From the IMG/VR virus record IMGVR_UViG_2718218135_000001, positions 49,251-113,250 of that record: a stretch of 64,000 nt of DNA, one strand, 5' to 3'. The DNA is from a virus. Taxonomy: Duplodnaviria; Heunggongvirae; Uroviricota; Caudoviricetes. Positions 37,160 through 58,880 of this stretch are shown here, piece by piece. Both the position numbers and the translations under genes were made by a program. The notes beneath the pieces were generated by a model, which made no database searches, was not told the origin of the DNA, and saw nothing but the letters and a program-made list of their open reading frames with translations. Within the stretch, counting starts at the first letter, position 1. Every line of letters starts with the position of its first letter.

Positions 37160-37596
37160 TGAATCGCCACAGGTTTAATAGACACCTCAGAGTCATTTAA
37201 GATGACTTAAAGAGAGGTGCCCATGAGCGGTAAGCGTTATCCCGAAGAGTTTAAAATTGAAGCAGTCAAACAGGTTATTGATCGCGGTTATTCTGTTGCC
37301 AGCGTTGCAACACGTCTCGATATCACCACCCACAGCCTTTACTCCTGGATAAAGAAGTACGGTCCGGATTCTTCCACTAATAAAGAACAGTCAGATGCTC
37401 AGGCCGAGATCCGCCGTCTCCAGAAAGAGCTGAAGCGGGTTACCGACGAACGGGACATATTAAAAAAAGCGCGGCGTACTTCGCAAAGCTGTCCGACTGA
37501 GGTACGCCTTTATCCGTGACAACACCCATTGCTGGCCTGTCCGACTGCTTTGTCGGGTGCTGGATGTGCATCCGAGTGGTTTTTACGCCTGGCTTC
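37160..37596 (+). mobile_element. IS3-family element fragment (left end plus orfA, truncated early in orfB)
   Basis: Terminal TGAATCGCCACAGG...; orfA with A6G slippery site (ATTAAAAAAAGC); orfB frame stops after about 45 codons. Confidence 0.6.
37223..37519 (+). CDS. IS3-family transposase OrfA (HTH)
   Basis: MSGKRYPEEFKIEAVKQVIDRGYSVASVATRLDITTHSLYSWIKKYG... with leucine-zipper-like C-terminus; AGAGAGG RBS. Confidence 0.7.
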   Translation: MSGKRYPEEFKIEAVKQVIDRGYSVASVATRLDITTHSLYSWIKKYGPDSSTNKEQSDAQAEIRRLQKELKRVTDERDILKKARRTSQSCPTEVRLYP

Positions 37597-37624
37597 TTCG
37601 TATAGCAGACTATTGCGCCCGATA

Positions 37625-37647
37625 TAATAAGTAGATACTTACTTATT
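37625..37647. promoter_or_regulatory. conserved intergenic motif A copy (ATAATAAGTAGATACTTACTTAT)
   Basis: AATAAGTA / TACTTATT 8-bp inverted arms; 40 bp upstream of 37688 gene. Confidence 0.5.
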
Positions 37648-37687
37648 TTTCTGAAAGAATACTTTCATCTGTTAGTCAGGAGTTGCT

Positions 37688-38500
37688 ATGAAAGAAGAAT
37701 TTCAGAAGTTAGTCTGCGACATCATCGACAAATCCGGCGTAGAAATTGATACAGAAGAGCGCCAGAAGATTATCGACGAGGCGATCCAAACTGCGCTGGA
37801 GCATATCGCCACGTCCGTGAGCGCCGCACCTCTTTCGGAAGGCTCGAAATACATGCAGGTCTGGGTTCGTTTTGGAGAGTCCCCGGAGTTGCCAGGTGTT
37901 AAGCAGAAACGCGCGGCACTTGTGGCGTTCTCTCGCGAGATGAAAGACGCAACGGTCGAAGTGAGTACCGGTGCATGGTACGACGGTCGCATTGTCTACA
38001 CTAATCAGACTGTCTACACCAATCAGACTGTGTGCGATGAAGGTGAACGGTTTGAGGATATTGTCGACGCAACTCTTCGCACGCTCAAAGTCAGAGCTGG
38101 TGTGGCGGATGACCCGTCCATCGCGGCGTTCCTGAGTATTGTCGAACAGTCTGAAGTTACCGAGCGCGTAACAGATCTGACAACTCCACCTGGTTTGCTG
38201 GAATTGGTGGTCAGTGGCGATATCAAAAAAGCCGTTGAGCGCATTCGTGAGGTGGAATACGGCATTATCTGCGATATGTGCCGCAGCGACTTAGACCTGG
38301 TGCGCATCATTGTCGACGCGGGTCAGGCATGTGACGGAGTACTCGCCAGTTTTGCAGGGCAAGTGGCTCGTCTGGCCAACGAATTACCCATGATTAAACA
38401 AGAAGCCAAATCCTACGCCGTTCATCGTACCAACGATTTACTGGACCCATACCGGTTCGAAGCTGCTCAGGACAAAATGACTGGCTGGGCGACCTGGTAA
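37688..38500 (+). CDS. hypothetical protein
   Basis: 270-aa acidic ORF with AGGAG RBS; contains 18-bp tandem duplication (VYTNQT x2). Confidence 0.4.
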   Translation: MKEEFQKLVCDIIDKSGVEIDTEERQKIIDEAIQTALEHIATSVSAAPLSEGSKYMQVWVRFGESPELPGVKQKRAALVAFSREMKDATVEVSTGAWYDGRIVYTNQTVYTNQTVCDEGERFEDIVDATLRTLKVRAGVADDPSIAAFLSIVEQSEVTERVTDLTTPPGLLELVVSGDIKKAVERIREVEYGIICDMCRSDLDLVRIIVDAGQACDGVLASFAGQVARLANELPMIKQEAKSYAVHRTNDLLDPYRFEAAQDKMTGWATW

Positions 38501-38517
38501 GCCTCGATAAAACATTT

Positions 38518-38539
38518 AGCCCCCTCGTGGGGCTTCTTT
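38518..38539 (+). terminator. terminator-like hairpin
   Basis: AGCCCC-TCGT-GGGGCT followed by TCTTT. Confidence 0.5.
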
Positions 38540-38550
38540 AAACTGCGATT

Positions 38551-58323: not shown

Positions 58324-58328
58324 TTTTC

Positions 58329-58353
58329 AGGCGTCCGAATGGACGCCTTTATA
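58329..58353 (+). terminator. rho-independent terminator after recombinase gene
   Basis: AGGCGTCC-GAAT-GGACGCCT followed by TTTAT. Confidence 0.6.
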
Positions 58354-58413
58354 CCTTGAAAATATATAATCACTTACTTATCATCTACGCACAATAGCCA
58401 CATAGGAAAACAC

Positions 58414-58614
58414 ATGATCAAACTCTATCTGATGGCAGTGGCTACAGGTATATCTGTAGTTTTCATCTACTGTTTGCTGGTTCCGTCGCTGATCTCGGCT
58501 AAAAGCGATATTGCCGTAATGCTTGGAATCATTGTTGCTTTTGGCGCTCCTGTTATCGGCTTTAATGTTGGTCGTAACTTTCTGAAGTCACTAATTAATT
58601 CGAAGGGGAAGTAA
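58414..58614 (+). CDS. small membrane protein
   Basis: 66 aa, two hydrophobic helices; AGGAAAACAC RBS region. Confidence 0.3.
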   Translation: MIKLYLMAVATGISVVFIYCLLVPSLISAKSDIAVMLGIIVAFGAPVIGFNVGRNFLKSLINSKGK

Positions 58615-58617
58615 GTA

Positions 58618-58809
58618 ATGAAGAAAGGTTTACTGGCAGTGATCGTGGCTGCTGTTTGCACAATGGGTCTTACAGGCTGCGATCGTGTTGAGCCTGGGTA
58701 CGTTGGCATCAAAGTAAACAAATTGGGTGAAGACAAAGGTATCGGTGAAGTTGTCGGCGTTGGCCGTCAGTGGACTGGTCTGAATACCGAGCTGTACACC
58801 TCTCTTTAA
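58618..58809 (+). CDS. small lipoprotein
   Basis: Signal peptide with lipobox LTGC; 63 aa; translationally coupled to upstream small gene. Confidence 0.4.
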   Translation: MKKGLLAVIVAAVCTMGLTGCDRVEPGYVGIKVNKLGEDKGIGEVVGVGRQWTGLNTELYTSL

Positions 58810-58880
58810 GTCATCTTAAATGACTCTGAGGTGTCTGTTAAACCTGTGGCGATTCAGTCTATTAAACCTGTGGCGATTCA
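58797..58880. repeat. inverted copy of IS3-family left terminus (60 bp, 1 mismatch vs 37160-37219) plus 24-bp tandem duplication of the terminal segment
   Basis: CACCTCTCTTTAAGTCATCTTAAATGACTCTGAGGTGTCTGTTAAACCTGTGGCGATTCA is reverse complement of 37160-37219; GTCTATTAAACCTGTGGCGATTCA repeated directly at 58857-58880. Confidence 0.6.

Follow-up and report, generated by a model that had tools for sequence, protein, structure and literature searches.

Phage-plasmids of the SSU5 group have already been reported to gain and lose insertion sequences (ISs), transposons and defence systems (bioRxiv 10.1101/2025.09.12.675607). Among the ISs of the IS3 family, a 1228-bp element of Shigella phage SfIV (KC814930) was annotated by its authors as ISEhe3 orfA/orfB (PMC3851460). 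Here we describe the remnants of an ISEhe3-like element in a stretch of 64,000 nucleotides (nt) of a Caudoviricetes virus (IMG/VR record IMGVR_UViG_2718218135_000001, positions 49,251 to 113,250 of that record). This whole stretch, hereafter the window, appears from its sequence to belong to an SSU5-like Escherichia coli phage-plasmid. The left end of the IS occurs in it at two places 21 kb apart and in opposite orientation, one at the edge of an island with fimbrial and toxin-antitoxin genes (island 1) and the other at the edge of an island with a type I restriction-modification (RM) operon (island 2). We consider it likely that an SSU5-like phage-plasmid gained these two IS-flanked cargo islands in separate IS-associated events, and that the IS relics of each were subsequently trimmed by deletions between short homologies. 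This is routine IS-flanked cargo acquisition and short-homology decay in a mosaic phage-plasmid, the kind of which is already known and which calls for no new mechanism.

Remnants of an ISEhe3-like element

Direct reading and a repeat search showed that 37160-37219 is the reverse complement of 58797-58856, with 59 of the 60 positions matching. When the full ISEhe3-annotated copy of SfIV was compared with the window by BLAST, the 60-mer was recovered with E = 8.5e-26, and the repeat is therefore far beyond chance. It is followed at 58857-58880 by a second direct copy of the terminal 24 nt, which matches 58833-58856 at 23 of 24 positions and is a perfect complement of 37160-37183. The copy at 37160 (37160-37597, + strand) corresponds to IS nt 1-437 and is 92.7% identical to the SfIV copy, while the inner stub at 58797-58856 (minus strand) corresponds to IS nt 1-60 and is identical to the start of the SfIV element at all 60 positions. 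The outer unit of the tandem at 58857-58880 (minus strand) is a solo left terminal repeat (IS nt 1-24), whose tip at 58880 touches the DNA of the RM island. A third ISEhe3-like fragment, absent from the original prediction, was found at 30174-30224 (+ strand). It comprises IS nt 1178-1228, that is, the right end of the element (92.3% identity to the SfIV copy over 52 nt, E = 5e-16 by BLAST), and its right-repeat tip at 30224 touches the fimbrial/toxin-antitoxin cargo.

The anatomy that the original prediction had given for the repeat was borne out. It had described a 60-bp inverted repeat with one mismatch and a 24-bp tandem, and it had taken the element at 37160 for a truncated member of the IS3 family, which agrees with the alignment above and with the orfA described below. 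It had also placed the inverted copy over the 3' end of a lipoprotein gene, at the junction with an AT-rich RM locus. The gene in question, a truncated SPFH/band-7 lipoprotein gene at 58618-58809 (+ strand), has ~60 native codons and then reads into the stub, within which its stop codon lies (58807-58809). The G+C content is 0.425 on the RM side of the junction (58881-64000), compared to 0.494 in the backbone.

Like ISEhe3 in SfIV, the element in the window has the imperfect terminal inverted repeats 5'-TG...CA-3' that are typical of the IS3 family. In the SfIV copy the left repeat reads TGAATCGCCACAGGTTTAACAGACAC and the right repeat TGAATCGCCACAGATAATCTAGACAC, and both units of the tandem are therefore of the left-repeat type; the idea that one of them was a right repeat was ruled out, as the right repeat of the IS differs at nt 14-20. 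Compared with both ends of the SfIV copy, the left repeat (TGAATCGCCACAGG...) was found at 37160 and, on the minus strand, at 58856 and 58880, and the right repeat (...CCGTGGCGATTCA) terminates at 30224. The fragment at 37160 also shares with the SfIV element an orfA with a helix-turn-helix (37223-37519; Pfam HTH_Tnp_1, E = 1.6e-19) and a site for -1 frameshifting, the A7G slippery sequence at 37462. An Rfam search at the gathering threshold yielded no frameshift pseudoknot. In contrast to the SfIV reference copy, the only one that contains orfB with its DDE (rve) transposase, the copy at 37160 ends at IS nt 437, and the remaining fragments measure 51, 60 and 24 nt. Thus, the ISEhe3-like pieces are dead relics rather than a functional member of the family. 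Each of them has one end only, and neither a complete element, which in the IS3 family would be flanked by a target duplication of 3-4 bp, nor such a duplication was found in the window.

With 92.7% identity over 437 nt for the 37160 copy and 100% over 60 nt for the inner stub, relative to the GenBank copy annotated as ISEhe3, the element is an ISEhe3-like IS of the IS3 family, and the 37160 copy appears to be an isoform or a sibling IS and not ISEhe3 proper, a name that calls for at least 95% nucleotide identity to the ISfinder reference. The isoforms can be told apart at IS nt 19, where T is found in the 37160 copy and the outer unit of the tandem, and C in the inner unit, in SfIV and in a minority of the records. 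Of 485 E. coli records, 388 matched the T-type 60-mer best. E. coli B has a copy of the T isoform that is itself truncated, and no full-length T-type reference was obtained.

Two islands on a collinear backbone

The region 53331-58801 aligns to Salmonella phage SSU5 at 88-95% identity, and also with many ~110-kb E. coli plasmids of the SSU5 type. The gene order is collinear with SSU5 and with its plasmid relatives: 25682-58801 is collinear with pSLy3, and 21364-64000 with pCUVET18-789.1, which is 99% identical across 21364-61545. The segment between the two inverted copies (37623-58801) has the same order and orientation as in pSLy3, and as in SSU5 where compared. Since pSLy3 has the 84-nt stub and the RM operon together with an intact, short intergenic region downstream of the primase gene that contains no IS copy, the collinearity extends to relatives lacking either copy, and there has been no inversion. 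An inversion isomer, which would be recognized as a match ending at 37219, was not seen among the plasmid matches listed. Inverted repeats of 60 nt could in principle support rare RecA-dependent flipping of the 21.6-kb interval; no flip isomer was seen in the databases.

The islands are also distributed independently. In PLSDB, the junction of the fimbrial island with the IS was found in 22 plasmids and the SPFH/stub/RM junction in 26, with both present in 6. The stub without the 37160 copy occurs in pSLy3 and ~19 other plasmids, and the reverse in 16 plasmids. Relatives free of one cargo or the other, for which the original prediction had proposed to look, are thus at hand: pSLy3 has no IS copy of island 1, and pTB212 has island 1 and no RM operon. 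The two islands were acquired separately, and the inverted 60-mers are unrelated relics of one common IS family.

Island 1 has the form [IS 1178-1228]-cargo-[IS 1-437], with both IS pieces on the + strand and their tips toward the cargo. According to the annotation of pCUVET18-789.1, in which the same content sits between the primase gene and the backbone gene that follows, the cargo (30225-37159; G+C content 0.44) consists of a pdcA' fragment, doc/phd toxin-antitoxin genes, a four-gene chaperone-usher fimbrial operon, an orfB relic and an AT-rich spacer. It begins (30225-31000 and relatives) with the pdcA fragment and the doc/phd pair, which is of the phage P1 type and lies beside a yehD-like chaperone-usher fimbrial operon. 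Given this combination with the pdcA fragment, island 1 is itself a mosaic. The orfB relic (36041-37023, minus strand) is that of an unrelated IS3-family element, with rve, rve_3 and HTH_21 domains (Pfam rve/rve_3 in 36041-36853) and no nucleotide similarity to the ISEhe3-like element, and ~137 nt of AT-rich DNA lie between it and the left repeat at 37160.

As in other decayed composite cargo islands, the cargo lies between two direct copies of one IS (30174-30224 and 37160-37597) with inner tips facing the cargo, and the islands are independently present or absent among otherwise collinear relatives. The window differs from them in that the outer IS ends are lost, so that the unit cannot transpose, and in that its joins with the backbone are microhomology deletions rather than transposase junctions. 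Intact outer ends and a target duplication of the whole unit were both missing, and island 1 is at best the decayed relic of a composite transposon.

The native sequence at the borders of island 1 was read from pE16EC1016-4 and pM160133_p3, the closest backbones without this island. In the native backbone, AACCAGTATTA is the 3' end of a TPR gene that overlaps the stop of the primase gene, and GCCTGGCTTC belongs to a terminator hairpin. In the IS, nt 1177-1187 read AACCAATATTA and nt 428-437 read GCCTGGCTTC. Exactly within these 11- and 10-nt matches the window changes over between backbone and IS, passing from backbone to IS at 30174-30184 (AACCAGTATTA), while at the right join the 10 nt at 37587-37596 (GCCTGGCTTC) are shared with the native backbone terminator. 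In pE16EC1016-4, only the last 8 nt of the IS, GCGATTCA, are retained at the same locus, at a TTATC(G/T)GTG match, and repeated short-homology trimming at the island 1 locus is therefore directly visible. A 17-nt sequence in this plasmid that resembles the right repeat was considered as a native target of the IS; it was resolved as 9 nt of the native TPR gene plus the 8-nt IS tip. The locus that follows the primase gene is a hot spot of variation (812-1050 of the extracted locus of pE16EC1016-4 and 4480-6400 of that of pM160133_p3), with a TPR-protein gene and a small open reading frame (ORF) in many plasmids, almost nothing in pSLy3 and a deletion in pE16EC1016-4.

In island 2 (+ strand), hsdM (59042-61474; Pfam HsdM_N and N6_Mtase), hsdS (61481-62818) and a gene with DUF4268 (62828-63991) follow ~160 nt of native upstream region. 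The hsdR gene lies beyond the end of the window and is annotated in pCUVET18-789.1 and pSLy3, which are 96-99% identical, so that hsdM, hsdS and hsdR stand in one operon, as in type I RM systems. Within hsdS, only the central part (62040-62217) matches these otherwise 96-99% identical relatives. Both target-recognition domains have been replaced, implying that the same island has a different RM specificity.

The stub of island 2 adjoins the backbone within the interior of the IS. SSU5 reads ...GTACACCTTCCCC, the reverse complement of the IS ...GGGCACCTCTCTT and the window ...GTACACCTCTCTT, which places the crossover in the 5-nt microhomology CACCT at 58797-58801, which occurs both in the SPFH gene and at IS nt 56-60. 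For this junction the alignment line of the IS was offset by 2 nt and was re-read by eye. Judged from these three sequences, the join is a deletion junction and not a transposase cut. The far edge of the island lies beyond the window. In pCUVET18-789.1 and pSLy3, hsdR and a further 142 nt are fused to the interior of an IS911 orfB, and the right-end tip of this IS911-like element is joined directly to the backbone at the equivalent of SSU5_064. About 1.47 kb of SSU5-equivalent backbone is missing (the 3' part of the SPFH gene, a NinX-like gene and the greater part of SSU5_064). Where the RM island meets the backbone, the one junction of the transposase type is thus that of the IS911-like element and not of the ISEhe3-like element.

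Given that all three joins between IS interior and backbone fall on microhomologies (11, 10 and 5 nt), they point to trimming deletions and not to transposase cuts. They resemble the short-homology (illegitimate) deletions of other phage and plasmid genomes in lying on direct repeats of 5-11 nt, each with the removal of dispensable DNA. Nothing in them is unusual, and a role for capsid size is one that we infer.

The 48-nt tandem has travelled with the RM operon. Among 5426 complete E. coli genomes, 55 contain it, each a single time (37 chromosomes and 19 plasmids), and every copy whose flanks were examined adjoins the same RM operon, including those in chromosomes that have no phage-plasmid backbone. 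The chromosomal context is a sugar-utilisation/CP4-like island, in the two chromosomes examined and in every chromosomal match listed. There the stub measures only ~67-70 nt, with an IS911-like right-end tip joining it at IS nt ~43-46, and ~190 nt downstream of hsdR an IS911 left end with orfA is found. The tandem of 9 metagenome and 3 IMG/VR contigs likewise stood only in these same two contexts, 6 times in each. The IS911-like element beside the RM operon contains a group II intron (ltrA) in pSLy3 (33647-36561) and in the E. coli chromosomes (8772-12262 in one of them; both ranges in coordinates of the extracted loci), and lacks it in pCUVET18-789.1. The shared intron suggests that the flanking IS911 copies share descent.

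An RM operon of 93-96% identity was found on Vibrio gigantis plasmid p1 and on a Shewanella plasmid. The homology of this Vibrio/Shewanella version to the window begins at 58879/58880, which is exactly the tip of the IS. An ISEhe3-like element therefore inserted ~160 nt upstream of hsdM, either before the operon reached enterobacterial replicons or in the course of it, and the IS relic has accompanied the operon since. In V. gigantis p1 (1715-12422 of the extracted locus), which has the closest copy outside the enterobacteria, Tn7-like tnsD/tnsE and a WYL gene lie directly upstream of the RM operon, which is thus Tn7-like cargo. The RM island with its 84- or ~70-nt stub is a single-origin module common to E. 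coli chromosomes and SSU5-like phage-plasmids that ultimately resembles the Vibrio/Shewanella operon, and the 48-nt tandem offers a convenient, essentially unique marker for tracing the lineage of this module. No outward promoter leading from the stub toward hsdM was found; the sole promoter-like hexamers are those of the IS itself, which point inward and lead away from hsdM. With the native upstream region of hsdM kept and no transposase encoded, the stub has no apparent function.

Proposed history and origin of the 24-nt tandem

Island 1 would have begun as a unit in which the cargo was flanked by two ISEhe3-like elements in direct orientation, the inner tips turned toward it. Deletions across short direct repeats common to IS and backbone (11 nt on the left and 10 nt on the right) would then have removed the outer parts of both ISs along with dispensable backbone, and the stub of the right end (30174-30224) and the left part (37160-37597) would be what remains. 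Island 2 would derive from an RM operon of the Vibrio/Shewanella type, into which an element of the T isoform may have inserted ~160 nt upstream of hsdM before the operon reached the plasmid. A copy of the C isoform may then have inserted into the left repeat of the T element after nt 24, and a later deletion at CACCT would have fused nt 60 of this inner copy to the SPFH gene, giving the 84-nt stub at 58797-58880. The other edge of the island would have come to consist of the IS911-like right-end tip joined directly to the backbone. The order of these events is one that we infer.

Several points weigh against this history. Selection for packaging size is assumed to be the reason for the trimming. 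That both breakpoints of island 1 fall inside IS copies is a coincidence, unless the IS was merely the nearest dispensable DNA. The cargo of island 1 ends in TAT on one side and TAA on the other, so that there is no target duplication around it, and a full-length ISEhe3-fimbrial-ISEhe3 composite donor was not found. For the nested insertion, there was no record in which the inner IS continues beyond 60 nt next to the RM operon, and no precursor was found. The distal junction of such an insertion, in which the outer IS resumes at nt 22/25 after the right-end tip (...CTGTGGCGATTCA + 0-4 nt + ACCTCAGAGTC), was absent from the GTDB species representatives, from IMG/VR and from the 5426 complete E. 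coli genomes. Finally, pM160133_p3 has a single C-type 24-nt copy in an otherwise identical context, which could be ancestral. A 28-nt partial match in E. coli ET350 was rejected, being a normal left end of the IS with a chance GTCT flank, and the GTDB species representatives contained neither a precursor of the tandem nor the tandem in any other context.

The two units of the tandem differ at the one position of the first 24 nt, nt 19, at which the IS has a natural T/C polymorphism, an outcome that slippage followed by a random substitution would give, by our estimate, ~1 time in 72. An origin from two different IS copies is therefore favoured over slippage, though not proven: an element of the C type would have entered the left repeat of a T-type element already in place, after its nt 24. 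The single copy in pM160133_p3 may then be read as a collapse of the repeat, even if it could be the ancestral state, because the C base is retained after a crossover at any point to the right of nt 5 in the unit.

The strongest competitor, which we regard as rather unlikely, is a local duplication of one left repeat by slippage or unequal exchange, followed by a point change or gene conversion. In its favour, tandem duplications of ~24 nt are common, the single copy of pM160133_p3 stands in an otherwise identical context, and neither a distal junction nor a precursor was found. However, the sole difference between the units falls on the only natural polymorphism and restores the common allele, which by our estimate a random substitution would do in the ~1 of 72 cases given above, and the borders of the unit offer no useful microhomology (GTCT and CTTT). 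The tandem is moreover present in both independent contexts, so that one single-copy plasmid against 55 genomes is more simply explained by collapse, and the C allele observed is the one that collapse would usually leave.

It is a good deal less probable that the tandem is the remnant of a head-to-tail IS dimer, formed by end-targeted insertion, from which nt 25-1228 of the outer element were later deleted. Loot and colleagues reportedly showed in 2002 that IS911 insertion is targeted beside its own end, and the targeting is said to produce abutted inverted ends a few bp outside the tip. The fact that the two units are different isoforms would also suit a dimer. A dimer nevertheless requires a deletion exactly from nt 25 of the outer element to its last base, with no microhomology to guide it. 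A review (PMC7986276), in which Rousseau et al. (2008) are also cited, describes IS911 as integrating preferentially next to its own end when OrfA is limiting, and we take this as the precedent for a dimer. The resemblance to the window lies in the immediately adjacent ends of sibling IS3-family elements; the left repeats of the window differ in being direct, with zero spacing, and in being joined at the inner edge of the outer repeat (nt 24/25). It is very doubtful that the tandem is a natural footprint of self-targeting in the IS3 family, in which an element inserts at the inner edge of the transposase-binding site of a sibling, a geometry other than the one given above for IS911. The surviving double site next to the RM operon might then still act in trans, as a transposase sink or as a surrogate end with a live ISEhe3, and so help the RM island to move between chromosomes and phage-plasmids.

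The original prediction had read the two inverted copies as the likely scar of one IS-mediated rearrangement, by inversion, deletion or one-ended transposition. This would have copied the left end from 37160 to 58.8 kb, and the same event may have rearranged the backbone or delivered the RM operon. Such an event is highly improbable. It is true that the 60-mers are inverted and 59/60 identical, that the outer 24-mer matches 37160-37183 perfectly and that IS3-family elements do cause rearrangements. But the interval is collinear with pSLy3 and SSU5, which speaks against inversion, and each copy occurs without the other among the plasmids counted above, so that the copy at 58.8 kb was not duplicated from the one at 37.1 kb. 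The stub and RM operon are also present in 37 chromosomes, and the inner 60-mer is of the C isoform while the 37160 copy is of the T isoform. One-ended transposition fails on the join of stub and backbone, which is the CACCT microhomology inside the IS and not an IS end. Of the earlier reading, the IS scar, its position at the border of the RM island and its historical tie to the RM operon stand; the inversion and the single event do not. There is next to no chance that the 60-mer is a native backbone repeat, the outcome that the prediction had named as its refutation, for this view has nothing beyond the two occurrences in the window in its favour. The matches of SSU5, PhiR41_1 and other relatives free of the IS end at 58797-58801, and the 60-mer is missing from them. 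In an unrelated lambdoid phage of Shigella an IS begins with a sequence 100% identical to the 60-mer, which is also present in 485 E. coli records.

Other features of the window

Three further features were noticed on the backbone. An 18-nt perfect or near-perfect tandem repeat (TGTCTACAC[T/C]AATCAGAC x2) lies at 37993-38028, inside an ORF of 270 aa (37688-38500). Rfam detected a single tRNA between 29 and 64 kb, at 41985-42056, compared to four (Asn, Tyr, Thr and Ser) annotated in pSLy3 at the equivalent locus, and the tRNA set is thus variable among these plasmids. The recA-like gene at 55984-58323 encodes 779 aa, compared to ~358 aa in SSU5 and pSLy3, and its extra segment (56175-57439) carries in relatives the annotation of a LAGLIDADG homing endonuclease. 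Given this length and segment, the gene is an intein-bearing allele of RecA that is polymorphic among these plasmids.

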